A stretch of DNA of 64,000 nucleotides, taken from contig CALVMU010000002.1 of assembly GCA_944348085.1 (NCBI GenBank), positions 4,461 to 68,460 on the forward strand, read 5' to 3'. The notes beneath the pieces are model-generated. The model saw only the letters and a program-made list of their open reading frames with translations, did not search any database and was not told where the DNA came from. How positions within the stretch are numbered: position 1 is the stretch's first letter; every line of letters starts with the position of its first letter. The DNA is from an uncultured Clostridia bacterium. GTDB lineage: Bacteria; Bacillota; Clostridia; Christensenellales; UBA1242. The translations under genes and the position numbers were made by a program. Positions 1 to 26,195 of this stretch are shown piece by piece.

Positions 1-1
1 T

Positions 2-226
2 TATCATCACGATAAAGAGAAATACGAACTCCCTTCTTGTTACGATGGTTCTATCTTGCCCAACATTGAAACACTACATTACAAACAAAAGATAACCAAA
101 CGCAATGAATGGATTATTGACAACTGTGACATTTTAGTCTGTCACATAGAAGAAACTTACAAAAGTGGAGCTTACCACACCGTCAGATATGCCCAAAAGC
201 ATAATAAACCAATAATTTATATATAA
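2..226 (+). CDS. C-terminal fragment (gene runs off the left edge) of a SLOG-fold YpsA/DUF1273-like protein
   Basis: Frame 2 is open from the window edge to TAA at 224-226. It translates to ...ITKRNEWIIDNCDILVCHIEETYKSGAYHTVRYAQKHNKPIIYI. The pattern RN-W-hhD-s-D-hhh...(S/G)G...T..YA.K..KPI matches my memory of DUF1273/SLOG C-termini. Confidence 0.35.
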   Translation, partial: YHHDKEKYELPSCYDGSILPNIETLHYKQKITKRNEWIIDNCDILVCHIEETYKSGAYHTVRYAQKHNKPIIYI

Positions 227-268
227 AATATTTAATTCGCATTAACTTTAATAAATTATAAACTTTAT

Positions 269-439
269 TTATCTAATATACTCACTCATAAAATCTTCAT
301 AACTAATACATCTTATCCCAATATCATCACACACTGTAGGCGTCCTAGATGAATTTAGTTTTCGCTCTTCAATAGTTACAACTATTGCATTTTCACACTT
401 AGCCTTAGCTATCACAAAGGGATCTGCAGATGGAGCATA
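269..439 (-). pseudogene. Remnant (C-terminal ~56 codons only, no start codon) of a DUF4411 PIN-like protein
   Basis: The minus strand reads YAPSADPFVIAKAKCENAIVVTIEERKLNSSRTPTVCDDIGIRCISYEDFMSEYIR*. This resembles the ADPxxIA...VVTxE...IPxVC...I.C conserved C-terminus of DUF4411. An in-frame stop lies 7 codons upstream and there is no Met. Confidence 0.4.
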
Positions 440-590
440 GGAAATGATATTTTAAAAATGTATCATTTCTTGATATTTTTCATTTTTAAATAGTTCCTTT
501 ATAAAAATAAATTCGTTTATAAAACTTTTTCTTTAGACTATTATAACACATTGTTAAATTTATGTATTATAAAATTAAAATCAGAAAAAT

Positions 591-1493
591 TTACTTTTGC
601 ATTTCCAACTCATCAAGAATTTTAACTGCACGAATAATTTTATTTTTTATGTCTTTGCACTCATCTTGGGTATATTTATATTCTAAATCATTTATATCTT
701 GTATTATCATTTCTTTATTTTTAATAATAATTTTAGCATGTCCCAAATTATTTCTAATATTATTTAATGATTTCAACAAGTTTATATCCCGATCTGATAT
801 ATTAACTAACCTATATTTTTTAAAGAGTTTTAGCAAATTTATTTTTTTGCACATATCAAATAAATAATTTTTATTCAAAAACAAACTTCTAACATAATCT
901 TCACTAGATTTACACTCGTTGATCTTTTTAGTAAAATTATCATTACCCTCTTCAACCAGTTTATCTACTTCATTTGATATAACTTGTTTTAACTCTTGAG
1001 ATTGTCCCTCATATAATTCAAGTAGAAATTTCCTTAATCTAAATTCAATATCACTATAATTGTGCAATACTACACCTCGTAATGATAATGGGTTAAGTGT
1101 CCTTTTCTCTAATTTTTCTAATATCTTCTCGGTTTTTAAAATTAAATCATCTCGCTTGCATATATACACTCCATCAAGCTGAAATTTATCAATTTTTTGA
1201 AATAAATTTTCATTTGTCGTTGAATATAATATTATATCTGTCAAACTTCTATTGTTATCCCTGATTTCCCTGATAACCTCATGCCCACTAATATCATTAA
1301 CTAAGCTATAGTCTATCAGATATAAATCATAATCCTCAGATTTAACTACTTCCTTATAGTCTGAGCCATTAGACAATTTTATATCTGGAATCAAGCCCAT
1401 AGATTCAACCTTTTTCTTTATTTTTTGATATGTTGAATCTTCTTCATCAAGAATATTATCATCAACTATTAATAATTTAAATTTTATGTCCAT
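591..1493 (-). CDS. Response regulator: N-terminal CheY-like receiver fused to a C-terminal HEPN-like (predicted RNase) domain
   Basis: 300-aa ORF. Receiver hallmarks: LLIVDD (D11/D12), phospho-acceptor Asp in DLYLIDYSL (D61), ILYST (S91/T92) and ICKRD (K113). The C-terminal ~170 aa are helical and contain NIRNNLGHA, the RNxxxH (Rx4H) HEPN signature (R247/H252). The ATG overlaps the upstream gene by 17 nt. Confidence 0.75.
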   Translation of the reverse strand: MDIKFKLLIVDDNILDEEDSTYQKIKKKVESMGLIPDIKLSNGSDYKEVVKSEDYDLYLIDYSLVNDISGHEVIREIRDNNRSLTDIILYSTTNENLFQKIDKFQLDGVYICKRDDLILKTEKILEKLEKRTLNPLSLRGVVLHNYSDIEFRLRKFLLELYEGQSQELKQVISNEVDKLVEEGNDNFTKKINECKSSEDYVRSLFLNKNYLFDMCKKINLLKLFKKYRLVNISDRDINLLKSLNNIRNNLGHAKIIIKNKEMIIQDINDLEYKYTQDECKDIKNKIIRAVKILDELEMQK

Positions 1494-3732: not shown

Positions 3733-4930
3733 TGTATAAAAACTCCTTAAATATTTCTGCCAATTGTTCTGCAAACAATGGCGGAACTGCATTACCAACT
3801 TGTGTAAATCTTGGTACGTCTTTTTTCCTTAATTCCCCACCTGTTGTATATTTCCCTTTAAACTGATACCAATCTGGAAAACTTTGAATTCTTGCCAATT
3901 CACGAACTGTTAAAATTCTAGGTTCACTATAATGTACAAAATCATCGGGATGAGTCGTAACTGTTGGAGCTGGGCTATTAGGATCCAACAAAACAACCCC
4001 TCTCCTTTTTAAATTTGGAACCAAATTGTCTGATGGTTTATATCTTTTTCCATGTTCTAAGTGTTCAATCATAAATTTCTGCATTTCTTGGATTTGTTTA
4101 CTATGATTCGCAAATCTATGGCTATCTGGATTTTCGTCACTTTTGATTTTTTTTCTCATAAACCTTTGATATGATGTATTAATATTACCATAATAACCAC
4201 TATAAAAAAACTGTTTACAATCTGGACATTTATAGATACCATTACTCTCTAACAAATCTGAAATAGCATCGCCTACTGTAGTTCTTATATTTAGCTGTTT
4301 TTTCTTGAGAAATTTTAACTTATACTTGTCAAGTTTTTCAAAAAAATCATCTATATTTTTTTTCAAACTTCCAACCAAAATAAATCTTTTTCTTCTTTGA
4401 GGAATACCGTACTCATCCATAAAAATCTCTTTAACTTTTATATTATATCCTAATTTTTTTAATCCTTCAATTACAACTTCCGAGTATTTTATTTTATCTC
4501 CATTATTTAATTTAAAATCTACAGAAATACCATGAACGTTTTCTAAAAGGATATATTTAGGCTTTACGCATTTCACAAACTCTATATAATTATTTACCAT
4601 AGTATTCCTAAAATCACTATGATCCCTTCTTCCAGCCATTGAAAATCCTTGGCAAGGTGGACCTCCTACAACAATATCAATTTCCCCCTTAAGTTTATAT
4701 AATTCTTTCTTATATGTTTTAAGGACTTCGACAATATCTAATTCAGTTCTTGGTAGCCATTGTGGCCAATTAAATTTATTTTTAGAAATTAAGTTAAAAT
4801 ATAAAGTACTAAAAGCATCCTTATTTTTTTCTATCGCAAAAATTCCAGTATATCCGGCATTGCAGAATCCTAAAGAAAGTCCTCCAGCACCTGCAAATAA
4901 ATCAATAAAAGTGTAATTATTGCTTTTCAT
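3725..4930 (-). CDS. DNA (cytosine-5)-methyltransferase
   Basis: All canonical C5-MTase motifs are present: DLFAGAGG (I), GGPPCQGFS (IV, catalytic Cys), LLENV (VI), QRRKR (VIII), RELARIQSFPD (IX), GNAVPP (X). The ORF-track start 4948 is a TTG. ATG 4930 (MKSNNYTFIDLF...) is more likely. Confidence 0.92.
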   Translation of the reverse strand: MKSNNYTFIDLFAGAGGLSLGFCNAGYTGIFAIEKNKDAFSTLYFNLISKNKFNWPQWLPRTELDIVEVLKTYKKELYKLKGEIDIVVGGPPCQGFSMAGRRDHSDFRNTMVNNYIEFVKCVKPKYILLENVHGISVDFKLNNGDKIKYSEVVIEGLKKLGYNIKVKEIFMDEYGIPQRRKRFILVGSLKKNIDDFFEKLDKYKLKFLKKKQLNIRTTVGDAISDLLESNGIYKCPDCKQFFYSGYYGNINTSYQRFMRKKIKSDENPDSHRFANHSKQIQEMQKFMIEHLEHGKRYKPSDNLVPNLKRRGVVLLDPNSPAPTVTTHPDDFVHYSEPRILTVRELARIQSFPDWYQFKGKYTTGGELRKKDVPRFTQVGNAVPPLFAEQLAEIFKEFLYND

Positions 4931-5078
4931 TTTTTCTCCCTTCTTCAACTTTTACAATTTTTTTTATAGCTTCCACAACATATTCATTAATACTTTTATC
5001 ATTTTTAACAGCAATAAGTTTTATTTGTTTATGAAGTTCAGGAGACATACGTATAATTAAAGATTTTGTATTTTTCAT
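4917..5078 (-). CDS. Small ribbon-helix-helix (CopG/Arc-like) protein, candidate controller of the methyltransferase operon
   Basis: 53-codon ORF absent from the track: MKNTKSLIIRMSPELHKQIKLIAVKNDKSINEYVVEAIKKIVKVEEGRKNEKQ*. The beta-strand (LIIRM), helix (PELHKQIKLIA) and helix (SINEYVVEAIKK) pattern is typical of RHH. AGGAG lies 7 nt upstream. The 3' end overlaps the MTase start by 14 nt. Confidence 0.6.
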   Translation of the reverse strand: MKNTKSLIIRMSPELHKQIKLIAVKNDKSINEYVVEAIKKIVKVEEGRKNEKQ

Positions 5079-5087
5079 ATAAACTCC

Positions 5088-5120
5088 TAATGATATCTAT
5101 ATATCTTGATATAATGATAT
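5088..5120 (-). promoter_or_regulatory. Two 9-bp direct repeats (plus strand TAATGATAT) in the operon leader; candidate RHH operator
   Basis: TAATGATAT occurs at 5088-5096 (overlapping the RBS of the RHH gene) and at 5112-5120, 24 bp start to start, in the only plausible promoter region of the operon. Confidence 0.25.
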
Positions 5121-5343
5121 TATATAAATAAGAAAAATGCAACTTATTATGTAATTTTAATTTTAAAATTTTATATTTTTCAACTATTTGTATTTATACA
5201 GAAAATAAAAAAGATATCTACAAAAGATTATAAATTTTATAAGATTAATATAAACACTATAATTTTTATATAGAGCCAGAATATATTTCCTATAATTAGT
5301 TTGTTATTTTTATTATTAAATTTCATATTTCATGTTATAATAT

Positions 5344-6333
5344 CTAAATCCTAAAATACTTTTGGTTCTTACTGGTTGGTTTATCTGGTTCGGTCATACC
5401 GATTAGTCCGGCATCTAGGGCTGGTTGCAAATAATTTTTTCTAAAACCAACGCGAGATTTTAGGTTTAGTTTTTGCATAAGTTCGGTTGCAGATTGCGGA
5501 TAACTTTCAATAACTTTCATAAGTTCTGTAATTTGGTTGTTTATATGGTTATAGTGATTTCTTGTGTCTGTTATTATATCTTTAATCGCCTTATTTATCA
5601 CATCCAACATAAACACAATAAAAATATTTGATTTCGCCTGACTTGTTGACAATGTTATTGCATTGTAATAATCTTTTTGGTTATCTTTAATAATACTTTC
5701 AATAGGTACCCAAGCAAAGATTGGCTTCCAACTTGCAAGAAACGCAGTTTGCCAAAGTCTTCCCATTCTTCCATTCCCATCACGAAATGGATGGATGAAC
5801 TCAAATTCATAATGAAAAACACTAGACTTAATAAGCATATTTGCCGGGCTAGTCTTTATCCAGTCAAAAAGTTGCCTTAGCTGCTCTGGAACAAACTCCG
5901 CTGGTGGAGCAAGATGAACAACTTTTCCATGCTCGTTATAAACTCCAACTTGTCCTGTCCTTATTTTCCCCGCTTCGTTTACAAGTCCATTCATCATTAT
6001 TCCGTGAATTCTCAATAAATCTTCAATGCTATAAGGATTTATATTTTCAAATTCCTTATAAGCCAAGTTTGCATTTTGAACAGCAACTATATCTTCCTTT
6101 GGTCCAAACACTCGCTTTCCATCAATAACATCTGTCACTTGTTCAATTGAAAGAGTGTTGTTTTCAATCGCAAGAGAAGAATGAATTGATTTAATCCTAT
6201 TTACCCTGCGAAGCCTTGGCAATTTCTCAAGTTTATTAACCCCAGAGAGTCTCCCCAAATTCTCCATAATCTCGGAAACCAACTCCAACATCTCATCAGT
6301 TATTTCATAAGGTGGAATATATTTTTCGTCCAT
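5344..6333 (-). CDS. Fic-family protein (AMPylase-type), class II with N-terminal inhibitory helix, C-terminal winged-helix-like tail
   Basis: Fic active-site motif HPFRDGNGRMGR (HxFx[D/E]GNGRxxR). Upstream SLAIEN fits the [S/T]xxxE[G/N] auto-inhibition motif. Confidence 0.9.
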   Translation of the reverse strand: MDEKYIPPYEITDEMLELVSEIMENLGRLSGVNKLEKLPRLRRVNRIKSIHSSLAIENNTLSIEQVTDVIDGKRVFGPKEDIVAVQNANLAYKEFENINPYSIEDLLRIHGIMMNGLVNEAGKIRTGQVGVYNEHGKVVHLAPPAEFVPEQLRQLFDWIKTSPANMLIKSSVFHYEFEFIHPFRDGNGRMGRLWQTAFLASWKPIFAWVPIESIIKDNQKDYYNAITLSTSQAKSNIFIVFMLDVINKAIKDIITDTRNHYNHINNQITELMKVIESYPQSATELMQKLNLKSRVGFRKNYLQPALDAGLIGMTEPDKPTSKNQKYFRI

Positions 6334-6381
6334 TATAACCCTCTTAACAAAAAATTTATTTTATACCGACAAAATTAAATT

Positions 6382-7197
6382 TTAATCTCTATAATATTTA
6401 TAATCTTTATTTACTAATGTGTAATCAGATATACCACAATTTGCTTTATTGCCATTATTTTTCATAAATGCTGCAAAACTCATTATCGTATGGTATTCAA
6501 TCTCCTTTATATATTGATGAAACTTAGGATGGATAATCGCATACATAAATTTATTCCACCCTGGTATTTCCTTTCTCCCAACCTTTACTCTATCTCCAAG
6601 TCTTGTTGCACTACCAATGTATAATTCCTTTTTAATTTCATCAATTAAATAATAAACAACATGATTTTGATCTTCATGCTTCTTTAACTCGGAGATATCC
6701 ATCCATCTTGTATATTTCGTAATCATCTGATCTTGTTTTTCTAAGCTTAACCAACCAAACACATTCGAATCAACAAGGTGCTTAAATAAATTATCATAAG
6801 GAGTTTCAACTTTTATAAATGTTGACAATTCAATTTCAGTTTCATTTAGTTTCTCAAAGACAATCACCTCTTGACTTCCGCCAATAAGTTCAGTATGAAA
6901 TTTCCTATTTTTGTTAAGCAATTTTTGGCTTTCTATTGCAATATAAGATTGAATAAATTCTTTTTTTAATACTTTAACAAGTTCAGTATCTAAAAATATT
7001 TGAAAAACTTTTCTTCCTGTTGATTGTAAAACAAAAGAAAATTTCCCGATATATTTTTTATTTTTAAATTTTATGCTAATTTTTCTATGTGTACCCCATG
7101 TCTCTTTATTAACATCTATAAAGTATATCCAATATTTTTTTGGAACAGTAATCCTGCCATCAAATGTGGATTTATCTATTTTTTTATAATATTCCAT
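6382..7197 (-). CDS. GIY-YIG nuclease-domain protein with an uncharacterised N-terminal domain
   Basis: The C-terminal third reads VVYYLIDEIKKELYIGSATRLGDRVKVGRKEIPGWNKFMYAIIH...IKEIEYHTI. This fits GIY...YIG...R...E spacing. The N-terminal ~170 aa (ITVPKKYW..., KISIKFKNKKYIGKFSF) are unassigned. Confidence 0.5.
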   Translation of the reverse strand: MEYYKKIDKSTFDGRITVPKKYWIYFIDVNKETWGTHRKISIKFKNKKYIGKFSFVLQSTGRKVFQIFLDTELVKVLKKEFIQSYIAIESQKLLNKNRKFHTELIGGSQEVIVFEKLNETEIELSTFIKVETPYDNLFKHLVDSNVFGWLSLEKQDQMITKYTRWMDISELKKHEDQNHVVYYLIDEIKKELYIGSATRLGDRVKVGRKEIPGWNKFMYAIIHPKFHQYIKEIEYHTIMSFAAFMKNNGNKANCGISDYTLVNKDYKYYRD

Positions 7198-7340
7198 AAA
7201 TCATTTCTCCTTTTACATTATAACCTATTCTCACATTAAAAGTCAATCATCTTATATATTTTCTTATACACTTTCTTATATATTATTTTTGATTAGGAAA
7301 AATCAAATATACAAAATTCAATTCGTAATATATTTAGTTT

Positions 7341-7411
7341 TAGATAGTCCTAGATAGTCTAAAATAGATAGCATTTTACTTGAAAAGTAGGCATAGGTGT
7401 CGGTAGGTGTC
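7341..7411 (+). repeat. Clusters of short tandem direct repeats next to the tRNA-fragment junction
   Basis: TAGATAGTC at 7341 and 7351, plus TAGATAGC at 7365. TAGGTGTC at 7394 and 7404. A small hairpin ACTAGC-GTTTTT-GCTAGT follows around 7446-7463. Confidence 0.5.
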
Positions 7412-7517
7412 AGCAAATTTTGGAATTGACAGCAAAAGAAAAAACACTAGCGTTTTTGCTAGTATTTATAAGGGTTTTATTAGCAAAGAGCAAAAGTTTT
7501 TGTTAAAATCTTTTTAA

Positions 7518-7562
7518 TTGGTAAGGCTGAGGTCATGGGTTCGAGTCCCATCATAAGCTCCA
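7518..7562 (+). other. 3' half of a tRNA-Thr(GGU)-like gene (anticodon loop to CCA) with no 5' half; att-type duplication
   Basis: The sequence TTGGTAA-GGCTG-AGGTC-ATGGG-TTCGAGT-CCCAT-CATAAGC-T-CCA parses as anticodon loop (U33, GGT, A37), 3' anticodon stem, 5-nt variable loop, T arm, 3' acceptor strand, discriminator and CCA. Neither the required 5' acceptor strand GCTTATG nor the 5' anticodon-stem strand CAGCC is present upstream. Confidence 0.7.
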
Positions 7563-7565
7563 TAA

Positions 7566-7595
7566 AAAAAGCACAAAAAGTTGTGCTTTTTTTTA
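7566..7595 (+). terminator. Rho-independent terminator immediately after the tRNA fragment
   Basis: AAAGCACAA-AAAG-TTGTGCTTT followed by a T-run. Confidence 0.7.
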
Positions 7596-7662
7596 ATTCT
7601 TATTTTTTGGATGGTGAAAATGCCTAGAAACCTTTTGCGTCTTTTAATTTTTATGATTAAAA

Positions 7663-8277
7663 TTATAACATTCTAGAATCATATTTTTTCATATCTTCAA
7701 TAGAGCAATATCCAATAAAACCAAATGTGCCTTCAAATTTGTCAGGTCTCATTGCATAAATTGTCGCTCTTGAATGTCCTTCAATGATTAAAAATTTTTT
7801 ATTATTGCAGGTAATTAGTATTATTGGAGGAAAAGAAATTGTATCGATTATTTTAGTTCCAGTTATAAAAGGCTCATTTGACACACCAAATATTTCCACT
7901 CCATCAGCGATAGTGCTTGCGGCAATTTTAGGTTTGGAAGTCCCTTTGGATAATTTATTCCAATAATCATAATCAATATAAAAAAGTTTCTCTAAGTCAT
8001 TGCGATTAAATTTGACAAATTCCCATTTATGAATATAAGGAAAATTACCAAATAATTCCTTATTGGGATACCCTCTGTATTCCTTGATAATTTTCTTTCT
8101 TAGATTGTTTTCTTCTTTGGAATCCAAATTACCATTAAAAATTATATTTGTATCTAATTTTAGTTGATACAAAATTTGACGCAATTTTTTATCAAATCTG
8201 ATTGAATTTAATTCGCCTTTCAAAAATGTCAATATCATCTCATCTTCACTTGAATCTCTTAATTTTTCCAAAATCAT
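7663..8277 (-). CDS. Hypothetical protein (204 aa), no recognisable motif
   Basis: Long ORF with coding-like composition. No family was recognised by eye. Confidence 0.5.
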   Translation of the reverse strand: MILEKLRDSSEDEMILTFLKGELNSIRFDKKLRQILYQLKLDTNIIFNGNLDSKEENNLRKKIIKEYRGYPNKELFGNFPYIHKWEFVKFNRNDLEKLFYIDYDYWNKLSKGTSKPKIAASTIADGVEIFGVSNEPFITGTKIIDTISFPPIILITCNNKKFLIIEGHSRATIYAMRPDKFEGTFGFIGYCSIEDMKKYDSRML

Positions 8278-15820: not shown

Positions 15821-16426
15821 ATGGATTTGCAAATTATTGGAAAATTTATCAAAGAGCAAAGAAAGGCAAAAGGTTTAACGCAAGTTCAGCTTGCAGAAAA
15901 GATACATGTAAGCGAAAAAACAATATCAAAATGGGAATGTGGCAATGGCTTTCCTGACACCACCCTGATGTTGCCACTTTGCAATGCGCTTGACATCAAT
16001 GCAAATGAACTTTTGTCTGGCAAAAGACTGACAAATGATGAATACAAAACACAAGCTGAAAGCAACTTGCTTGTTTTGAAGCGCGAGCAAGAACAGAGCA
16101 ATAAATTTTTGCTTATGCTTGAAAATGTGCTCGGATATATGTCTTCCATAACCTTTATCATCTTGATTTTTGTCGCTTCATTTGTAGAAATGCCTACATG
16201 GACGCGCATTCTTTTGATGGTGATCGGTTTTATCCATATCGTTATTGGCATTCATTTTTGTTTGGCAATTGAAAAAGATGCTGGATTTTATGAATGTCAA
16301 CACTGCCATCACAAATATGTTCCAACCTACAAGCAAGTGCTCTTTTCAATGCATTATGGCAGAACGCGATATATGAAATGCCCAAAATGCAACAAAAAAT
16401 CATGGCAAAAAAAGACGACAAAGTAA
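15821..16426 (+). CDS. XRE-family HTH regulator with two TM helices and a C-terminal zinc-ribbon
   Basis: Start trimmed to MDLQIIGKFIKEQRKAKGLTQVQLAEKIHVSEKTISKWECG (Cro/C1 HTH) with a strong RBS. Then two hydrophobic helices, then CQHC...(22 aa)...CPKC. Confidence 0.8.
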   Translation: MDLQIIGKFIKEQRKAKGLTQVQLAEKIHVSEKTISKWECGNGFPDTTLMLPLCNALDINANELLSGKRLTNDEYKTQAESNLLVLKREQEQSNKFLLMLENVLGYMSSITFIILIFVASFVEMPTWTRILLMVIGFIHIVIGIHFCLAIEKDAGFYECQHCHHKYVPTYKQVLFSMHYGRTRYMKCPKCNKKSWQKKTTK

Positions 16427-16460
16427 ATTGCCGCCTTTTTTATACAACTTTGACTATCAA

Positions 16461-17450
16461 TTATAACAACTCTATTTGCTGCTCTTCGCAACTCTTTAAA
16501 GTATCTTTGTCCCAATAACTTGCTTGAACTTCACCAATATGAGCTCTACCAAGAAGTAACATGCAAAGTCTGCTCTGTCCTATTCCTCCTCCAATTGTAA
16601 GAGGAAGCTTATCTTCCAAAATGGCTTTGTGGAATGGATAGCTAAGTCTCTCCTTTTTGTCAGCTTTTTCAATTTGACTGAGAAGGCTTGTTTTGTCAAC
16701 TCTGATTCCCATGCTGGAGATTTCAAGAGCCTTATCAAGAACATCATGATAGAAAAGCAGATCTCCATCCAGACTCCAATCATCATAGTCTGGTGCTCTG
16801 AGATCATGTGGCTTGCCATCGCTCAAATCATCACCAATTTGCATGATGAAAACAGTTCTGTATTTTTTAGTGATTTTGTCTTCTCTTTCTTTCGCTGTAA
16901 GAGTTGGATACATATCTAAAAGTTGCTGAGTTGTGATGAAGTAAACATCTTTTGAAATGTCAATCCCCTTGAAACCTTTTGATTTGATAAAATCACTTGT
17001 CTCTGCAATTGCTTTAACGATTTTTCTTACCGTCTTTTTTAAATAATCAAAAGTTCGATCTTCTTTTGATATAACCTTTTCCCAATCCCATTGGTCAACA
17101 TAAATAGAATGAGTTGCGTCAACTTTATCATCTCTTCTTATTGCAGTCATGTCTGTATACAGACCTTTATGAAGAGGAAATTCATACTTTTTCAGCGCCA
17201 TCCTTTTCCATTTTGCAAGAGACTGAACAATTTCAAGATCTTTTCCGTCTTTGGCAATATCAAATGTGACCGCGCGTTCAGTTCCGCTTAAGTCATCTTG
17301 AAGCCCGCTTTCTCGCGTAACAACAATTGGGGCTGAAACTCTGACAAGGTCAAGTTCTTTTGCCAAAGCTTTTTCAAATTTGTCTTTTATAAGTTTTATA
17401 TATTTTTGTTTTTCGAGCACGCTCATTTTTATATATTTTTCTTTTAACAT
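16461..17450 (-). CDS. asnA: Aspartate--ammonia ligase (asparagine synthetase A)
   Basis: 329 aa with class-II aaRS-like AsnA features along the whole length: VSAPIVV..GLQDDLSG.ERAV.F, YVDQWDWE, GGGIGQSRLCMLLL. RBS AAGGAG. Confidence 0.9.
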   Translation of the reverse strand: MLKEKYIKMSVLEKQKYIKLIKDKFEKALAKELDLVRVSAPIVVTRESGLQDDLSGTERAVTFDIAKDGKDLEIVQSLAKWKRMALKKYEFPLHKGLYTDMTAIRRDDKVDATHSIYVDQWDWEKVISKEDRTFDYLKKTVRKIVKAIAETSDFIKSKGFKGIDISKDVYFITTQQLLDMYPTLTAKEREDKITKKYRTVFIMQIGDDLSDGKPHDLRAPDYDDWSLDGDLLFYHDVLDKALEISSMGIRVDKTSLLSQIEKADKKERLSYPFHKAILEDKLPLTIGGGIGQSRLCMLLLGRAHIGEVQASYWDKDTLKSCEEQQIELL

Positions 17451-17529
17451 AATTTTTCTCCTTAAATTTATATTTTTTTTGCAATTTTTTTACAAAAAAC
17501 ATTTAAGGAATAAAAAATCTGCCAAAAAA

Positions 17530-17592
17530 TCACCTTAAATGCTTAAAATTATTACCATCCTTTTCGCCCGCTACGGCATTAGTCTTTTTCAT
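17530..17592 (-). CDS. Small ORF (20 codons) with a very strong RBS between the attenuator and asnA
   Basis: AAAGGAGGTAAAT-ATG, encoding MKKTNAVAGEKDGNNFKHLR*. Coding status is unproven. Confidence 0.3.
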   Translation of the reverse strand: MKKTNAVAGEKDGNNFKHLR

Positions 17593-17612
17593 ATTTACCT
17601 CCTTTTTTCATA

Positions 17613-17639
17613 GAAAAAGCACCCTATAGAGAGGGTGCC
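17613..17639 (-). terminator. Attenuator hairpin 2: intrinsic terminator in the asnA leader
   Basis: Minus-strand RNA GCACCCU-CUCUAU-AGGGUGC followed by UUUUU. Confidence 0.65.
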
Positions 17640-17659
17640 ACTTAACAACAATAAATAAA

Positions 17660-17688
17660 AACACCCTCTTGGATTTCAAGAGAGTGTT
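17660..17688 (-). promoter_or_regulatory. Attenuator hairpin 1 (11-bp stem followed by a U-run) in the asnA leader
   Basis: Minus-strand RNA ACACUCUCUUG-AAAUC-CAAGAGGGUGU followed by UUUUU. Its 3' arm (AGAGGGUG) is also complementary to the 5' arm of hairpin 2 (CACCCUCU). Confidence 0.6.
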
Positions 17689-17727
17689 AAAACAAATTTA
17701 TTTTTTCAACAACAAAATTGAAACCCA

Positions 17728-17781
17728 TTATTTTAATGCGTTTAAATTATTATTGTTGTTGTTATTCAAAATTTGTCTCAT
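17728..17781 (-). CDS. Asn-rich leader peptide of the asnA attenuator
   Basis: ATG AGA CAA ATT TTG AAT AAC AAC AAC AAT AAT AAT TTA AAC GCA TTA AAA TAA encodes MRQILNNNNNNNLNALK*. That is 7 consecutive Asn codons and 8 Asn among 17. A weak SD (AAGGAA) lies upstream. The ORF sits between a consensus promoter and the two hairpins. Confidence 0.7.
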   Translation of the reverse strand: MRQILNNNNNNNLNALK

Positions 17782-17811
17782 TTTTGTTTCCTTTTTCTAT
17801 GATATAGTTTT

Positions 17812-17839
17812 ATTATATCACAATTTATGCTATTGTCAA
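17812..17839 (-). promoter_or_regulatory. Sigma-A-type promoter of the asnA leader
   Basis: The minus strand has TTGACA, a 16-nt spacer and TGaTATAAT (consensus -35, extended consensus -10). Confidence 0.65.
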
Positions 17840-17928
17840 CTGTTTTGTTATAATTTTTTACAAATTATGTTAAAAATTTTTATGATTATTAAAATAGTTA
17901 TTTTTCCTGTTTTGCGCATACTAAAAAC

Positions 17929-18422
17929 ATGGAATATGTTAAAGGCAAGCCATACTTTTGTGACTGCAAAGAAAAAATCAAACAGTATAGATATTTGGAT
18001 AGAGATTTTCACTGCGATATTTTGATTGTTGGAGGCGGGATAGATGGTGCCATCGCAAACTTTTATCTTGCGCAAAATTTTGATGTGGCACTTGTTGATA
18101 AAGGTCACATAGGTTTTGCCTGCACCGCATGCGCAACTGCTCTTTTGGAATATCAACTCGATGACAATGCCGCCGATCTTAAAAAAAACGATGAGCATAA
18201 AAACTTGTTGTTGATTATAAATTTTGTGCCTGTTTTGGAACAACGCAAAACAATCTAGGTCTTATTGGCGCTAGCAAGATTGAGGAAGACATATTGCTGT
18301 TTATAAGCTGCGGCGCAAACGGAATCATCAATGCCATGAAAGGCATTGAAATCATCGAAGATTTGCTTCAAGGGAAAAATAACAAACTTTCGTCAATTTC
18401 TTCACCAAAAAGAGAAGTTTAA
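17929..18422 (+). pseudogene. FAD-dependent oxidoreductase remnant (N-terminal ~85 aa and C-terminal ~55 aa in different frames, middle missing)
   Basis: The N-terminal piece has the dinucleotide-binding motif DILIVGGGIDGAIANFYLAQNFDVALVDKG. It then degenerates and stops at 18258. A second frame reads GLIGASKIEEDILLFISCGANGIINAMKGIEIIEDLLQGKNNKL...* and ends at 18422. Intact family members are several hundred aa long. Confidence 0.55.
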
Positions 18423-18441
18423 ATTTTAACGGAGCAAATTT

Positions 18442-19017
18442 TCAATTTTTGTTGTCCTCTTCTCCCCCACCCGAATTGTCTGATATTTCTACTGTCGAGC
18501 GTTGTTTTTTGTTTGTAATGGCAAAACTTATGATTGCCACAACAATTGAGCAAGTTTCAAAAGCATCCAAGATTGCTGTTGTATAAACTTGATGAAGAAT
18601 GGCAAATAACACAAGCAAAATATTTGGCGGAATCATTAAAATTCTTACAAGTTGCATGTTTTTCATAAACATAGCTATAGTAAAAACAATAGGTGTAATC
18701 ATTGTGATAAAGTCATAAGCGTCTGTATAAAACACTGCCCCAATTGTCAAATATATGGCTGAAAAGACTACCAAAAGATATAATGGAGGCTGTTTTTCCA
18801 TTTTTTCATAGAAAAATAAAATTACAACACGAATGCAAGAGATAAAAGAATTGATGCCTGCTACCATTGCATCTGCAAAAACAAAGGAGAGAGCATAAAA
18901 AATATTTGCAATTGTTTGAAATAGAAAAAAATGTGTTTTGTTTTTCAAAAACACAGATATCACAACGAGAATTAAGGCTATACCGCCCATAACTTGAGAA
19001 ATAATAAATTCAGCCAT
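18442..19017 (-). CDS. Integral membrane protein (possibly YgjV family)
   Basis: 191 aa with about 6 hydrophobic helices. The YgjV resemblance comes from memory only. Confidence 0.5.
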   Translation of the reverse strand: MAEFIISQVMGGIALILVVISVFLKNKTHFFLFQTIANIFYALSFVFADAMVAGINSFISCIRVVILFFYEKMEKQPPLYLLVVFSAIYLTIGAVFYTDAYDFITMITPIVFTIAMFMKNMQLVRILMIPPNILLVLFAILHQVYTTAILDAFETCSIVVAIISFAITNKKQRSTVEISDNSGGGEEDNKN

Positions 19018-20921: not shown

Positions 20922-23900
20922 TTATGCAACTGTCAGTTCGGTCCATCCATCGCTTGTAAGGTCATCAAGTGTAACCGTGCCTGTCCAATAGTCGCTCATA
21001 GTTGAAAGAGCTTTAGGAATCGGACAACTGCTTGAATTGATCCAAGCAAACTCACTGAAATCATCACCTTGATAATATTTTACATCGTTAAGTATATACA
21101 AGTTGTTTGTCATTGTTATGTCAGCAGAGCCAACCAAAGTCAAATCCGCAATCTGTGATATTGCATAGCTGTTTGTTAGAGTGACTGGGATTGTGCTTAA
21201 ACCGATAAGCACTCCATGATTTGTTCCACCATATGTGATAGCGCTTTCAATTCCACTGCCCTCAATTGTAAATGTCACAGGATATGATTCAGTCGAACCT
21301 GAAACATTCAAATGTCCAACAAATCCACCGACATAGTCACCAGAAGAAGTCACACTGCCAAGATTGATGCAACCTGATAATGTGATGCTTGGAAGAGTGC
21401 TTGAATTTGAAACAACAAATTGTCCAATAAGACCTCCTGCATAATTGCCTGTTGCAGAAACTGGTCCATAGTTTTTCAAAGTCAAGATTGTGGAAACTGA
21501 AGTTGAACTTGAAGAATAAGATTGATTCATATAGCCAGCAATTCCACCGACATATTGGGTGCCTGAAACTGCTCCGTAGTTTGCGCTGTTGTTAACTATA
21601 CCATCCCCTGCAATTCCACCAACATATTGGGTGCCTGAAATATCTCCATAGTTGACACAATTTTCAAAGTCACATCCCATAGAGATATATCCAGCAATTC
21701 CACCAGTATTGATTTGGTCACTTGTCACATTGCCATAATTTATACAATTTGTGATGCCTAGAGGAGAATCATAGCTATAAAACACATAATATCCAAAAAT
21801 TCCACCAACGCCAAACTGACTACCGCTTGCCATTAATATGTTTACATCTATGTCTCCGCTGTTATAAGAATTTGAAATACCTGAAGAGCCACCTAAATAT
21901 GCAACCACTCCGCCAACATAATGCGCTTTGCCAGAAATAGAGCCTGTGTTATAACAATTGTTCAAAGTGGTTTCATAGCTATCACCAATCAAACCTCCAA
22001 CATAACCATTTGAACTTATTCCAAAAATATTTCCTGTATTATGTGAATTTGTCAAAGTTGTGTCATCTGTATCACTTACAATTCCGCCAGCATAAGAACC
22101 AGTCACACTGCCCTCATTGTAAACATTGTCGATTGTCAATGGAGATGTTGAATGAGAAAATTGTCCAATAATTCCTCCAGCAAAAGAAAGCCCAAGAATG
22201 TTGCCAGTGTTGCTACAACCAACAATTGAACCACCAGCTGAATCTCCTCCAGCGATAATGCCTCCAGCTATTGAAGTGCCAATCACGACAGCCGAGTTAT
22301 GACAATTTTCGACATTGATTTGAACACTTGGACTTACCAACATCATCATGCCAACAACTCCAGCCGCCCCATCATTTTGTATATATGATTCAGCAATGTT
22401 TATATTTTTAAGAGTTATATTGTCATTTAGTCCAATAACAACACCAAAAAGTCCGCCTATATAGTCAGAACCGTCTGTAAACATTCCTGTGATCTCATAT
22501 CCACCGCCGTCATAGTTTCCAGAGAATATTAAATAAGTTTGATTGACCATGTCAATGTTGCCAATTGCATTCCAAACATGTGCCGAAAGGTCAATGTCTG
22601 CTGTTTGCTTGAAATAGACTCCTGAAAACTGCATTTTCATTATCATTCCGCCGCCCATATCCATCGAGTCACCTTCAGCAAGATTGTTGTTGACAAGATA
22701 GGAAAGATATGCAAGATGCTCAGGTGTTGAGATGATGTAAGGGTCTTCTTCTGTGCCAGTTCCTCCGCCAAAAGAGGTGCCACGATATTCTTCATCAATC
22801 CAATTGCCTTGAATGGTTGAAGTGAAAACAGGATAGCCATCATTTTCGCCTTCAACAAAGCCCCAAAGTGAATAGAAATTCCAGCCACCAGCCCAAGCAT
22901 CACTCAAGTACCATTCCTGTGTTTTTGCAAGCGTGGTGATGTTTGGTTCATACACACCACCCAAATCTTCACCACTGCTAATGTCTGGCAAATCTTGCGT
23001 TGCACCATCACCATAAATCACATTAACTATTGACAAAACACTTACACTGCTTGCTCCACCAATTATTGCACCAACCAAGTTTTCTGCGCCTGTGACAGAA
23101 CCAATATTGAAGCAATTTATTACTGTGAGAGATTTGTTTGAATAAGGAGTATAATAACCCACAAGTCCGCCAGCATAGCCAGTTGATAAAATGTTGCCGC
23201 GATTATAAACGAAAGCCACCACTATAGGGTCTGAACTACTTACATTATTTAGTCTTACAGCATTTCCGAAAACACCACCAACTGCAGAAGTGTTGCTGCC
23301 ATTGGTCAGCTCAACATTTCCTAGATTATAGCAATTTGTTATACTGATAGTGTAATCTATACCACCAGCAAGACCTCCTATATAGCCTTGACCTCCATTA
23401 ACGCTGACATTGCCAATGTTATATGAATTGCTTATTCCTCCTGTGTAACCAGCAAGACCGCCAATGTTTGAAGAATAGTTTGTGCCAACAACATTTGCCA
23501 CAATGTTGCCTTCATTTATGCAAGAAGATATGGTCCCATAACCATAGCCAGCAATGCCTCCCACAGCAAGACCAATATAGGAGATGCTTGAACCTACAGA
23601 TGTTTTTGAGGTTACCGTTATATCTCCATAATTGTTGGAGTTAGCGATATAAGTTGATGTCAATCCAGCAATTCCGCCAACATTTCCTCTAGCCGCATAA
23701 AAAGAACCATTATAAGCACCTTGTGAGTCAATAACGAAAGAAGCAGTGATCGAACCATAATTTTCACAGTTTATTATTTGTGACGAGTTTCTGTCATAAC
23801 CATATATTCCGCCAACTGCAGTTGCGTTAGAACCATAGATATTTCCATAATTCTTACAATTGCTGACTGTGGTTTGACTAACATATCCAGCAATGCCCCC

Positions 23901-26195
23901 TACATATCCACCAAAGCCATAAACATCTGCATAACTGATGCAATTGGTGATAGTGACTGGATACATAGTTGCACCCATGATATAGTCAACTTGCGCAACA
24001 ATGCCACCGACACAGTTTGAACCATAAATTGTCGAGTCTTTAAGAATTATGTTTTCAATTGTGACCGCATCAATAGATGTTGAAGCATATGAGGTGTCGA
24101 TAAGTCCAAATAAACCTTGATTTTGGCTATCACTATTTCCGCCCATCCAATCTTCTTCGTCAATGCTGCCTTCAACAAAAGCAGGAGTTGCAAGGTTTGT
24201 TATCTCAAAATTTTGACCGTCATAGTGCCCAAAGAAATTATCAATAGGATCCCACAGATGACCGCTAAGGTCAATGTTTTGTGTTTGGATGAAATAAGTG
24301 TTTTCATAATGCGTGCCACTGCCTGTCATATATGAAAGATAGGCAAGTTCTGCACCATTTGAAATTTGATATGGCTTGTCTTCTGTTCCGTCACCGCCAG
24401 CAAAAACTTTCGCCCGCACACCTTCATCAGTCCAATAGGTTGCCTCTTCTATGATAATTATAGGATAGCCACCATTTTGCTCAGGGTCAATTGTCCAAAC
24501 AGAAGTAAAATTCCAAGGCTCAGATGAATTCCAATTGCTTTCATTTGTGTACCAATCTTGTGTTTTTGCAAGGTCAGCAATTGTGTCAAGATGGCTTGCA
24601 TCAATGCTGGAAGAATCGGCATTGTCTGCCCCTACAGCTGCAAGTGAACTTGATGCATCACCACCCCAATAATTTTTTAAAATTTCAATATCGCCATAGC
24701 TTAAACTGCCAACAATTGCACCACTTGCACCACTTGTTCCAGAGTTTGTGACAGAGCCAAGGTTGAAATTGTTGATAAGTTTGAGAGGTGCTAAAGTTAA
24801 TGAATCTCCACTTGTGCTTCCACCATCGCCTTTCACAGCCCCCAAAATTCCACCTACATTTCCAGAATCAAAAAGGTTGGTGACTGTTGCCGCATTATAA
24901 TTATTTGTTATATTGATAACATCATCAGGGATTATTGTCTCTTCACTGCCAACACTAATCATTGTTGCACCTGCAGAAGTTGTAAAGCCTACAATTCCGC
25001 CTGCGACAGCATAAGAAAAAGCATCGGCACCCACAGTAACATTGCCTCTGTTATAACAATTTTTGACATCACCAGAAACATAATATATATAAATAGAAGA
25101 ATCTCCACCGGTAATATCAATATTTGCCATTAATATAACTACTGCACTATTTGTTCCAACAATTCCTCCTGCGACACAATCTCCAACTATTTCGCCATAA
25201 TTTGCACATTTTGAGATTGTTCCGCCAGTTCCGCTTATTCCGCCTACATAAATACCAGTAATTTGACCATTGTTGATGCAACCTGTAATTATTCCAACAG
25301 TAAAGCCTGAGATGCCACCTGTTCCTACTCCATTAGCGATATTTCCGCCACCAGAACCAATACAATCGGCAGTTAAAGGACTGTTATTTACTGAATTTTC
25401 AACTCTTCCACCATAAAGCGTTCCAATTATCCCTCCAAAATTTGAGCCTTTATTTTCCATATCAGTGATAGTGCTATTATTGACACAATTTTCTACAACA
25501 GTGGCATAACCAAGACCAACTATTCCGCCTGCGCTTCCACCAAACGCATAGATTTCTGCATAACTTATGCAATTTGAAATTGTCATATAAACTTGTGACC
25601 AGTCGAGGCCTGAATCATTCACGTCTAAAGTTCCACCTGCAATAATAGAACCAGTAACACCTTGTCCAAAGATAACTGAATCGCGTAAAACAATGTTTTT
25701 GATTATAATTCGATTTGTGCTGTAGCTTGCAATTTCCGCTTCATGCCCAAACAGTCCAGCAAACTCTACTGGTGAGCTTTCTGTGCCAACATAGATGCCT
25801 GAAATTTCAAATCCGCCACCATCGAAAGTTCCGTAAAATGAATCAGTATTTGATGTGCCTATTGGCGTCCAATAATAGGCAGACATGTCAAGATCAGTTG
25901 TGACAAGAAAGTTTCTCCCTATGTCACTACCACTATTTATTTGATAAGCAAAATAAGCAAATTGTTCAGGTGTTGAAATCAAATATGGATCATCTTCAGT
26001 TCCAGTTCCGCCAGCATAAGACGTGGCATAGTTTCCGCTGTCAGTCCAATTTCCGCTGTTTGTTGGTCCATCAACAGCGATTGTTTGTTTTTCTTCTTTT
26101 GGAAGCGACAAAAAGTATAATCCTACAGAGCAAAAAGCAACGAAGATTGAAAGCAAAACAATCAGCACGATTGATTTTTTGGAGACCTTTTCCAT
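20922..26195 (-). CDS. Giant surface protein (1757 aa): N-terminal signal-anchor plus three tandem GLUG-motif beta-helix super-repeats
   Basis: N-terminal TM helix (IVLIVLLSIFVAFCSVGLYFLSL). Dozens of GG[IL][IVA]G...N[CS]xN.G.[IV] units fit the GLUG motif. Each module opens with GG.GTE.DPY.IS....LAY(L/F)(S/A)Y and closes with LAKTQ[DE]WY...W...NGGYP. Confidence 0.85.
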   Translation of the reverse strand: MEKVSKKSIVLIVLLSIFVAFCSVGLYFLSLPKEEKQTIAVDGPTNSGNWTDSGNYATSYAGGTGTEDDPYLISTPEQFAYFAYQINSGSDIGRNFLVTTDLDMSAYYWTPIGTSNTDSFYGTFDGGGFEISGIYVGTESSPVEFAGLFGHEAEIASYSTNRIIIKNIVLRDSVIFGQGVTGSIIAGGTLDVNDSGLDWSQVYMTISNCISYAEIYAFGGSAGGIVGLGYATVVENCVNNSTITDMENKGSNFGGIIGTLYGGRVENSVNNSPLTADCIGSGGGNIANGVGTGGISGFTVGIITGCINNGQITGIYVGGISGTGGTISKCANYGEIVGDCVAGGIVGTNSAVVILMANIDITGGDSSIYIYYVSGDVKNCYNRGNVTVGADAFSYAVAGGIVGFTTSAGATMISVGSEETIIPDDVINITNNYNAATVTNLFDSGNVGGILGAVKGDGGSTSGDSLTLAPLKLINNFNLGSVTNSGTSGASGAIVGSLSYGDIEILKNYWGGDASSSLAAVGADNADSSSIDASHLDTIADLAKTQDWYTNESNWNSSEPWNFTSVWTIDPEQNGGYPIIIIEEATYWTDEGVRAKVFAGGDGTEDKPYQISNGAELAYLSYMTGSGTHYENTYFIQTQNIDLSGHLWDPIDNFFGHYDGQNFEITNLATPAFVEGSIDEEDWMGGNSDSQNQGLFGLIDTSYASTSIDAVTIENIILKDSTIYGSNCVGGIVAQVDYIMGATMYPVTITNCISYADVYGFGGYVGGIAGYVSQTTVSNCKNYGNIYGSNATAVGGIYGYDRNSSQIINCENYGSITASFVIDSQGAYNGSFYAARGNVGGIAGLTSTYIANSNNYGDITVTSKTSVGSSISYIGLAVGGIAGYGYGTISSCINEGNIVANVVGTNYSSNIGGLAGYTGGISNSYNIGNVSVNGGQGYIGGLAGGIDYTISITNCYNLGNVELTNGSNTSAVGGVFGNAVRLNNVSSSDPIVVAFVYNRGNILSTGYAGGLVGYYTPYSNKSLTVINCFNIGSVTGAENLVGAIIGGASSVSVLSIVNVIYGDGATQDLPDISSGEDLGGVYEPNITTLAKTQEWYLSDAWAGGWNFYSLWGFVEGENDGYPVFTSTIQGNWIDEEYRGTSFGGGTGTEEDPYIISTPEHLAYLSYLVNNNLAEGDSMDMGGGMIMKMQFSGVYFKQTADIDLSAHVWNAIGNIDMVNQTYLIFSGNYDGGGYEITGMFTDGSDYIGGLFGVVIGLNDNITLKNINIAESYIQNDGAAGVVGMMMLVSPSVQINVENCHNSAVVIGTSIAGGIIAGGDSAGGSIVGCSNTGNILGLSFAGGIIGQFSHSTSPLTIDNVYNEGSVTGSYAGGIVSDTDDTTLTNSHNTGNIFGISSNGYVGGLIGDSYETTLNNCYNTGSISGKAHYVGGVVAYLGGSSGISNSYNSGDIDVNILMASGSQFGVGGIFGYYVFYSYDSPLGITNCINYGNVTSDQINTGGIAGYISMGCDFENCVNYGDISGTQYVGGIAGDGIVNNSANYGAVSGTQYVGGIAGYMNQSYSSSSTSVSTILTLKNYGPVSATGNYAGGLIGQFVVSNSSTLPSITLSGCINLGSVTSSGDYVGGFVGHLNVSGSTESYPVTFTIEGSGIESAITYGGTNHGVLIGLSTIPVTLTNSYAISQIADLTLVGSADITMTNNLYILNDVKYYQGDDFSEFAWINSSSCPIPKALSTMSDYWTGTVTLDDLTSDGWTELTVA

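Follow-up and report, generated by a model that had tools for sequence, protein, structure and literature searches.

A likely asparagine-responsive leader-peptide attenuator of asnA in uncultured gut Clostridia, with a putative tandem-terminator relay and ORF-coupled Shine-Dalgarno switch

In a stretch of 64,000 nucleotides from an uncultured Clostridia bacterium (contig CALVMU010000002.1; the whole stretch is called the window hereafter) the gene asnA, encoding aspartate--ammonia ligase, is preceded by a short open reading frame (ORF) with seven consecutive Asn codons and by a series of hairpins. The locus thereby raises the question whether the synthesis of asparagine is controlled here by a ribosome that translates asparagine codons. 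An earlier note, made from the sequence alone, had proposed such a ribosome-mediated attenuator and had listed eight elements in support of it, namely a consensus promoter, a weak Shine-Dalgarno sequence (SD), the Asn-rich ORF, a segment complementary to the Asn codons, a hairpin with a U-run, a second AUUGUUGUU segment, a second hairpin with a U-run and asnA itself. We read the minus strand of positions 16200-18200 and recovered all eight elements on that strand at 17839-17451, and the follow-up described below leads us to consider it likely that the leader is an Asn-responsive leader-peptide transcription attenuator of asnA. All coordinates are in window numbering and refer to the minus strand throughout the element.

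In the order of transcription the leader consists of the promoter, the leader ORF with the Asn codons (region 1), a complementary segment (region 2), a first terminator hairpin (T1) of which the 5' part constitutes region 3, a second terminator hairpin (T2), a second ORF (ORF2) and five elements (a, L, b, L' and c) that precede or include the asnA start (Table 1). We refer to the part that would act on transcription as stage 1 and to ORF2 with the elements that follow it as stage 2. The promoter, TTGACA (17839-17834), 16 nt and a TG-extended TATAAT (17817-17812), matches the consensus at 12 of 12 positions, as claimed before, and it was both the best site and the sole 12/12 match in a 3-kb scan; relatives possess a comparable promoter at the same distance 5' of the leader ATG. 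The call of asnA held as well, with a score of 331 bits against the NCBIfam equivalog TIGR00669 (cut-off 293). Given that an intrinsic terminator is located directly 3' of asnA, the transcription unit should be monocistronic. The whole leader folds far better than shuffled sequences (z = -5.6).

The leader ORF, MRQILNNNNNNNLNALK*, has 17 codons and a stop, and the weak SD that had been noted is the AAGGA at 17793-17789. The Asn run reads AAT AAC AAC AAC AAT AAT AAT and is the sole run of seven in the 64-kb window, and 100 shuffles that preserved the dinucleotides gave an expectation of none; Asn runs of five codons likewise occur at this site only.

The AsnA protein was used to scan 185,579 species genomes as well as JGI/ENA metagenomes, which yielded 160 asnA loci, most of them 53-62% identical to the AsnA of the window. 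An Asn-codon run was found upstream in two of the 160 (L002, 75% identity, and L081, 80%), and the element is absent from the 53-62% identical relatives returned by the scans. A large protein database contained many AsnA proteins at 76-83% identity, and the contigs of 11 diverse representatives, which were fetched, carried the element in all 11 cases. The set analysed comprises 14 distinct asnA leaders (window, L002, L081 and the 11 representatives), or 15 leaders when that of a gatCAB operon (L179, see below) is counted, and the sources are uncultured Clostridia from human and animal guts. In a profile search (nhmmer; the window and 178 loci, making 179 sequences and 855 kb) the element occurred only in this clade, and no second copy was found elsewhere in the window. 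The AsnA proteins across the lineages are 74-87% identical and the synonymous sites of asnA are saturated: the third position is kept in 0 of 39 invariant four-fold-degenerate columns and mean third-position identity is 0.35. The mean pairwise nucleotide identity amounts to 97.5% for region 2, 89% for T1, 56% for the spacer between them and 74% for the asnA coding sequence. The design is conserved, in other words, in lineages with saturated synonymous sites, the RNA blocks being 89-98% identical.

The search of orthologous asnA leaders that had been suggested in the earlier note found the Asn mini-ORF and the stems conserved in the 14 distinct leaders, and the peptide, whose lack of conservation the note would have counted against itself, is present in these 14 and in seven further unnamed gene calls. 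In most lineages it reads M[FI]R[LF]x-N7-[LS]N[AT]xx-MGFIFVV[ED].. and the window and L177 carry a short form in which stop codon and AUG of MGF share nucleotides (UAAUG); in L175 the run is degenerate (NNDNNND) and the ORF stops early. In 15 of 15 leaders an SD and an AUG precede the Asn run in frame, and insertions and deletions keep the frame, like the 6-nt insertion in L172. Considering these frame-preserving indels and the conserved SD and AUG, we argue that the leader ORF is translated. Gene callers sometimes record the element as an unnamed hypothetical protein. A further variant, P0128 (57 aa), lacks the stop after MGFIFVVEKI and reads through T1 (..QHSLGTQESVF..), and may be genuine or the product of misassembly.

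A gene call of 62 aa that includes the leader, used as query, returned the seven unnamed ORFs mentioned, all with the same peptide. One of these, in L179 (2486-5135 for the leader and the genes behind it), lies behind a TTGACT-17-TATAAT promoter and is followed by an identical region 2 and T1, and then by a fragment of a D-Tyr-tRNA deacylase gene (53 N-terminal residues, 2717-2878), gatC, gatA and gatB; T2 and ORF2 are lacking, so that stage 2 is absent. GatCAB makes Asn-tRNA(Asn) by transamidation. The fact that the same module precedes a second Asn-related operon provides independent support for the sensing of Asn.

Region 2 contains the UUGUUGUUG segment (within 17728-17705) that the earlier note had matched to the Asn codons, and a pairing between regions 1 and 2 is indeed predicted in all 14 leaders. 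Its consensus is AUGGGUUUCAwUUUUGUUGUUGAA, and these nucleotides are kept both when translated as MGFIFVV (11 lineages) and when located after the stop (window, L177 and L175), which implies that the constraint acts at the RNA level; Asn codons, when reverse-complemented, encode FIFVV. RNAalifold, applied to the 14 leaders, returned a 19-bp imperfect hairpin between the Asn codons with the following UUAAAC and region 2 (1:2 hairpin), followed by T1, and in these two structures 98.2% of the cells are paired, against 42-55% when the partners were slid. T1 is present in 15 of 15 leaders; the hairpin and U-run had been described correctly but the stem counts 12 bp, not 11. When region 2 up to the T1 loop was folded, an antiterminator with the same two-helix topology was obtained in 14 of 14 leaders. 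Its helix 1 joins UGGGUUUCA(w) to (w)UGAAAyyCA, which covers the last part of the T1 5' arm, the loop and the opening nt of the 3' arm, and its helix 2 joins GU-GUUGAA to UUCAAC-AC at the start of the T1 5' arm; 93.7% of the cells are paired, against 35-51% when slid. The T1 loop carries the dinucleotide UC or CU, or CC in L179, and in each case this pairs with the GG of region 2. T1 shows a compensatory change from U:A to A:U in L163 and L081, and the neighbouring pair of the antiterminator has changed to match. The predicted energies over the 14 leaders are -9.4 to -17.0 kcal/mol for 1:2, -13.2 to -16.7 for 2:3 and -16.4 to -18.9 for T1, proportions that resemble those of the E. coli trp attenuator.

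The earlier note had left the choice of pairing on a stalled ribosome to folding with and without masking of the Asn codons. Such ribosome-masked folding was carried out on the nascent RNA up to the T1 loop, in place of equilibrium folding of the full leader. With the ribosome on the second, fourth or last Asn codon 17 of the 21-22 nt of region 3 pair with region 2, and with no ribosome none do; with the ribosome at the stop the number is 0 in the window and 9 in L169. The stall thus gives the antiterminator on nascent RNA, which is not fully formed in the absence of a ribosome or with one at the stop, and the antiterminator consists of region 2 with the T1 5' arm and loop; the T1 3' arm and the T2 5' arm are not its partners. 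The predicted logic is classical: a stall leads to read-through, and completed translation or no translation leads to termination.

In the mechanism that we propose, transcription would start at around 17805 and the 17-codon leader would be translated. When Asn is scarce, the ribosome would stall on the seven Asn codons and leave region 2 (AUGGGUUUCAAUUUUGUUGUUGAA) free to pair with the emerging 5' arm and loop of T1 (UGGGUUUCAA:UUGAAAUCCA plus GU-GUUGAA:UU(U)AAC-AC), so that T1 would be blocked; the released 3' arm of T1 (AGAGGGUG) would then pair with the 5' arm of T2 (CACCCUCU), T2 would be blocked in turn and the polymerase would read on. When Asn is plentiful, the ribosome would reach the stop (UAA, 17730-17728) and cover region 2, allowing T1 to form, and the stop codon appears from the model to be positioned for just that. 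In the absence of translation region 2 would be locked to the Asn codons in the 1:2 hairpin and T1 would form as well. In both terminating situations T2 would catch the polymerases that read through. The attenuator model makes the prediction that changing GGGUUUCA into CCCUUUCA abolishes induction and that compensatory changes in the T1 loop and arm restore it.

T2 is, like T1, a hairpin followed by a U-run as stated before, but its stem has 8 bp instead of 7 and it is optional: 11 of the 14 lineages possess it, and it is lacking in L161, L165, L175 and the gatCAB leader. The complementarity between the T1 3' arm and the T2 5' arm, from which mutually exclusive structures had been concluded, is real, with a duplex AGAGGGUG:CACCCUCU of -16.3 kcal/mol in the window against -7.2 for shuffles, but it is not the key antiterminator. 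As primary antiterminator the pairing was rejected, considering that T2 is absent in three lineages and in the gatCAB leader, and its role would be that of a secondary relay. The 5' arm of T2 always contains the complement of the T1 3' arm, and in 10 of the 10 T2-bearing leaders tested the relay duplex is significant and, at -8.5 to -16.3 kcal/mol, matches T2 in strength; no more than 2 of 500 shuffles reached it in 9 of these 10. The pairing is lineage-specific, in that T2 arms of the CACCCUC type go with T1 arms of the GAGGGUG type (window, L173 and L174) and CACUCUC goes with GAGAGUG. Since window, L173 and L174 belong to three different clades of the AsnA tree, the coordinated change of the two arms must have arisen more than once. 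The second AUUGUUGUU segment of the earlier note lies between T1 and T2 and is probably the remnant of a duplication of the segment from region 2b to T1; a duplication of T1 would be the simplest origin of T2. We propose with moderate confidence that one antitermination decision is relayed through two terminators, and that T2 serves to lower the leak when terminating.

The earlier note had placed asnA about 160 nt beyond T2; this stretch holds a second SD-led ORF and a predicted SD-sequestering switch. The SD, the AUG and the motif M[KR]K.NAVAG[ED].[DE].NN of ORF2 are kept in 14 of 14 leaders, with in-frame 3-nt indels, and ORF2 was found only in this clade (nhmmer). Asn5 is invariant (14 of 14), Asn runs of 4-6 occur in L170 and L173 (N6 in L170), and the Asp/Asn cluster always lies 0-3 codons before element a. 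In codons 6-9, GCC GUA GCG GGC, rare G/C-ending choices are retained in 12-13 of the 14 lineages, versus 0 of 39 comparable asnA columns that keep the third position, and these codons form a small hairpin that is predicted in all lineages, with a compensatory form, GCUUUGGCAAGC, in L161. Given the retention of these rare synonymous codons and the compensatory form, the hairpin is likely under selection at the RNA level.

The switch itself spans 17541-17448, with the order a, L, b, L' and c after the Asn cluster of ORF2. Its helices were evaluated by duplex energies per lineage, shuffles and cross-lineage matrices, and column-wise counts were dropped since MAFFT shifts L and L'. In the window a:b amounts to -11.5 kcal/mol and b:c to -10.3; over 10 lineages the ranges are -8.3 to -13.9 for a:b (reached by at most 1 of 300 shuffles), -7.6 to -13.6 for b:c and -7.0 to -10.1 for L:L', where divergent lineages match their own partner best. 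All three helices beat shuffles in 10 of 10 lineages and show compensatory changes, such as the G-C to A-U change in a:b of L167. Elements a and c compete for one anti-SD at near-equal energy, and the minimum free energy structure is a:b in some lineages and b:c in others; in the blocked state the b:c helix is usually prolonged by pairing of L with the spacer between SD and AUG. Nascent RNA without c folds into a:b (8 of 10) or L:L' (2 of 10), from which it follows that the open state would form first. With a ribosome mask over Asn5 or over the initial codons of the cluster, a stays free in folding without pseudoknots, with results that depend on the lineage. A role of a:b and the adjoining U-run (17541-17494) as a third terminator was considered and rejected, as the U-run is absent in other lineages. 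In L167 (730-986) the ribosome-binding block of asnA, AAATTTAAGGAGAAAATTAT, occurs twice; ATA follows copy one and the asnA ATG follows copy two, around 80 nt later, with an extra hairpin in between.

On the basis of these foldings the elements are predicted to constitute a conserved bistable switch that is tied to the translation of ORF2. The read-through RNA would carry ORF2, with its strong SD, invariant Asn5 and Asp/Asn cluster. In one state the strand formed by L and b would pair with two decoys, a upstream and L' downstream, leaving the asnA SD free; in the other it would pair with the asnA SD, the spacer and the AUG and block translation. Our guess is that ribosomes passing through ORF2 melt a:b and bring about the blocked state, and that ribosomes held at the Asn codons prolong the open state. 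Ribosome traffic would then flip the switch to blocked and Asn stalling would delay this, so that both stages work in the same direction, but our confidence in this direction is low. It is possible, if rather doubtful, that the complete arrangement represents a two-stage Asn sensor with two leader peptides in series, in which the relay attenuator is a portable module (a regulon of asnA and gatCAB) that replaces the Asn T-box, ORF2 runs a pseudoknotted kinetic timer of decoy SD, anti-SD and SD, and the GCCGUAGCGGGC hairpin is part of the sensing.

Table 1. Positions of the predicted features of the asnA leader and its surroundings in the window.
Feature	Position	Strand	Remarks
sigma-70-type promoter	17812..17839	-	consensus match; predicted start ~17805 (start inferred)
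leader ORF MRQILNNNNNNNLNALK*	17728..17781	-	homologous peptide in 14 asnA leaders and P0121-P0128
region 1, seven Asn codons	17746..17766	-	putative sensor and, with the following UUAAAC, 5' strand of the 1:2 hairpin
region 2, AUGGGUUUCAAUUUUGUUGUUGAA	17705..17728	-	predicted to pair with region 1 (anti-antiterminator) or region 3 (antiterminator)
region 3, UUAACACUCUCUUGAAAUCCA	17670..17690	-	T1 5' arm, loop and first nt of 3' arm; partner of region 2 in the antiterminator
terminator 1 (T1)	17651..17688	-	12-bp stem 17688-17660 and U-tract; -16.4 kcal/mol
second AUUGUUGUU copy between T1 and T2	17644..17652	-	UUGUUG-like copy in 5/10 T2-bearing lineages
terminator 2 (T2)	17613..17639	-	8-bp stem 17639-17618 and U-tract; 5' arm CACCCUCU alternatively pairs with the T1 3' arm
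ORF2 MKKTNAVAGEKDGNNFKHLR*	17530..17602	-	SD GGAGG 17602-17598, ATG 17592; Asn5 17580-17578; Asn14-15 17553-17548
GC-rich block GCCGUAGCGGGC, ORF2 codons 6-9	17566..17577	-	directly after Asn5; small predicted hairpin
element a, CAUUUAAGG	17533..17541	-	at the ORF2 3' end; closely resembles the asnA SD region; pairs with b
element L, GGCAGAUUUUUU	17512..17523	-	in the a:b loop; pairs with L' or the SD-AUG spacer
element b, UUCCUUAAAUG	17500..17510	-	anti-SD; pairs with a or c
element L', AAAAAAAUUGC	17481..17491	-	partner of L
element c, AUUUAAGGAG	17448..17467	-	asnA SD GGAG 17461-17458, spacer and asnA AUG 17450-17448
asnA, aspartate--ammonia ligase	16461..17450	-	TIGR00669 equivalog; regulated gene
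intrinsic terminator 3' of asnA	16408..16441	-	perfect hairpin and U-run

Several observations weigh against this picture. All evidence is computational, and the sequences derive without exception from metagenome-assembled genomes (MAGs) or metagenome contigs of uncultured Clostridia. For stage 1, the leader SD of the window is weak and poorly spaced, and in the lineages with a long leader a ribosome that has reached the stop codon covers no more than the 3' half of region 2. Covariation is sparse, with one pair in T1 and one in the antiterminator, and shuffle controls were not significant; since the blocks are nearly invariant, column-wise statistics are uninformative here, and the structural support for stage 1 is conserved pairing potential, not covariation. 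Moreover, once the full T1 is present it is the equilibrium fold at every masked ribosome position, and the attenuator model therefore needs the usual kinetic argument. For stage 2, the asnA SD of the window is paired (probability 0.95) at equilibrium in all scenarios of pseudoknot-free folding, and a ribosome mask on the last Asn codon of the cluster covers a and shifts the prediction towards the blocked state, the reverse of what starvation would call for. In addition, L002 and L174 lack elements a and b, and the invariant GC-rich hairpin of ORF2 has no role in the model.

How much of the arrangement is regulatory at all, and in what manner, has to be judged against three other explanations. 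The repeat (AAY)7 might be the target of a TRAP- or HutP-like RNA-binding protein that responds to Asn and governs the choice between terminator and antiterminator, with the ORF being incidental. Proteins of these two types are known to bind triplet repeats, and both the weak SD in the window and the preservation of the repeat at the nucleotide level, AAC positions included, are in line with this. Pairing with the Gs of region 2, however, accounts for the AAC positions, and the triplets follow each other without spacers. The presence of SD and AUG in frame with the run in all 15 leaders, the frame-preserving indels (6 nt in L172) and the placing of the stop such that a terminating ribosome would cover region 2 speak against an incidental ORF, and none of the differing genomic contexts links the locus to a candidate regulator gene. 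We consider control by such a protein very unlikely. Much the same degree of doubt applies to the explanation that the small ORFs encode functional peptides, either a hydrophobic or secreted MFRLINNNNNNNLNALNMGFIFVVEKI or a regulatory nascent peptide, and that the hairpins are ordinary terminators with asnA transcribed independently. Both peptides are conserved in their amino acids, MGFIFVV being invariant where it is translated and NAVAG being invariant in ORF2. Yet window, L177 and L175 stop before MGFIFVV and keep its nucleotides all the same, FIFVV merely mirrors Asn-type codons as their reverse complement, and the conserved codons of ORF2 retain rare synonymous choices, which is indicative of selection on the RNA. 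An independent transcript is hard to reconcile with the window, where no site with at least 9 of 12 promoter matches is present on the asnA strand between T2 and asnA, and with the fact that the leader is always followed by T1 and then by structural genes, at asnA as well as gatCAB.

The remaining explanation accepts the attenuator but holds that only stage 1 is regulatory, ORF2 and the elements a, b, c and L having no Asn-dependent role and acting instead to stabilise or process the mRNA or to couple translation constitutively. Folding does not fix the polarity of stage 2, the Asn and Asp codons of ORF2 could reflect an AT-rich composition, and the absence of a and b from L002 and L174 and of ORF2 from L179 indicates that stage 2 is dispensable for the module. 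Against it stand an Asn5 that is invariant in 14 of 14 leaders, the Asn runs of 4-6 in L170 and L173 and an Asp/Asn cluster that always lies 0-3 codons before a. Likewise, the fact that a is a near-copy of the asnA SD and competes with c for the anti-SD at near-equal energy is hard to explain without a switch. We regard a stage 2 without an Asn-dependent role as improbable, if less so than the previous two explanations.

Some further features were noted in the surroundings. Divergent from the asnA promoter lies an ORF of 109 aa (17929-18258, plus strand) with a GxGxxG motif of the FAD/NAD-binding type (DILIVGGGIDGAIANFYL), which may be a truncated gene, as it is much shorter than typical oxidoreductases. 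The region 20922-26195 (minus strand) encodes a highly repetitive Gly-rich protein of 1757 aa with repeats of the GGIVG/GGIAG type and an N-terminal membrane or signal segment. The first part of the window (1-8000) has a GC content of 27.6%, against 35-39% across most of the remainder. In two of the relatives a gene for a class-II aminoacyl-tRNA synthetase with an anticodon-binding domain (PF01336 and PF00152, AsnRS- or AspRS-like) adjoins asnA (L169, 1-975, and L170, 3304-3996); in L170 it lies downstream of asnA on the same strand and may share the operon.

Rfam returned no relevant match at E<=10 in the region 16000-19000, nor at gathering score in the whole window, and the curated His, Trp, Leu and Thr leader models did not match, so that the element belongs to no curated leader family. 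A match to the PyrR binding site (RF00515) of 27 bits (E = 0.69), against a gathering score of 54 bits, was discarded given that a terminator hairpin alone drives it, and the same holds for matches to snR4 and CsrC, which are terminator-driven noise; the partial CsrC match, obtained in permissive mode (E = 0.00028), falls on the terminator behind asnA, which is just a hairpin with a U-run. The T-box model (RF00230) had no match in the window, in the leaders of the clade or in L001-L019. In a locus from an Acutalibacteraceae MAG (L020) a T-box leader of 124 bits is present at 803-1036, around 1.5 kb upstream of asnA. A full-text search of the literature did not recover an Asn-codon leader for asnA or gatCAB, although the coverage of such a search is incomplete and a report in a subscription journal is possible. 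Both searches agree with the earlier statement that no Asn attenuator of asnA was known. Its interpretation as a ribosome-mediated Asn attenuator gains support from the conservation, the predicted alternative structures, the masked folding and the gatCAB leader, and the element appears to be a real and apparently undescribed Asn case of ribosome-mediated attenuation, with a putative tandem-terminator relay and ORF-coupled SD switch. If so, asparagine would join the short list of amino acids that are sensed by leader-peptide attenuation, and in these organisms a leader peptide would take the role that the Asn T-box has in other Clostridia, for asnA as well as gatCAB. As the element is missing from Rfam, a model built from the 15 leaders would improve the annotation of MAGs of gut Clostridia, and the tandem-terminator relay and the decoy-SD switch are compact motifs that may be of interest to work on co-transcriptional folding and synthetic attenuators.

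Compared to known systems, the leader shares its basic design with trpL, hisL, leuL, thrL, pheL and ilvL of E. coli and Salmonella, which likewise possess a short SD-led ORF with a run of cognate codons, four overlapping segments that pair as 1:2, 2:3 and 3:4 (the latter being the intrinsic terminator) and a stop codon at which the ribosome covers segment 2. The sequence-level features by which leader attenuators are recognised were found in silico, namely the leader ORF, the cognate codon cluster, the terminator, an exclusive 2:3 pairing, a 1:2 pairing over the codons and the dependence on ribosome position, although for the ribosome at the stop codon this was partly so in the long-leader form. 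The energy hierarchy is close to that of the trp attenuator and the run of seven codons is like that of hisL; the his leader, too, uses a longer chain of alternating pairings. The differences are that Asn is sensed, that the targets are asnA and gatCAB, that the hosts are uncultured low-GC Clostridia, that there is no similarity in sequence or to the Rfam models, and that two tandem terminators with a predicted relay (11 of 14 lineages) and a second SD-led ORF with an SD switch are present here.

Closer in phylogeny are the leader peptides of other Firmicutes: His leaders have been described upstream of hisS/hisZ in bacilli (PMC2965389) and for the his operons of the B. cereus group, Peptostreptococcaceae and Erysipelotrichales (PMC9413887), and a Leu-rich attenuator peptide controls ilv-leu in S. 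aureus (PMC5794164). These cases make clear that leader peptides replace T-boxes in some Firmicutes lineages. They have the phylum and the mechanism in common with the leader described here but concern other amino acids and targets, with no mention of Asn, no relay and no second stage. With regard to function, the nearest counterpart is found in C. acetobutylicum, where, going by the title of a paper cited in PMC4206432 (Saad et al. 2012, J Biol Chem 287:20382), an Asn-specific T-box controls both tRNA-dependent amidation (gatCAB) and the synthesis of Asn. As far as that title conveys, the charging of tRNA(Asn) as signal, the regulon of Asn synthesis and gatCAB, the bacterial class and the antitermination output would be shared, whereas the sensor is a T-box RNA that binds the tRNA directly and would here be a ribosome translating Asn codons. 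Stage 2, in turn, would resemble translational attenuation of the erm/cat type, where occupancy of a leader ORF hides or exposes a downstream SD, and the in silico analysis indeed places the asnA SD in a structure with an alternative pairing that overlaps ORF2; the predicted switch differs in that no antibiotic is involved and in having three strands and an extra helix (decoy SD copy, anti-SD, SD and L:L'). The arrangement of two short ORFs in series within one leader, finally, is also found in the mgtCBR leader of Salmonella, where the tandem ORFs sense proline and ATP and act on transcription (PMC3641672).

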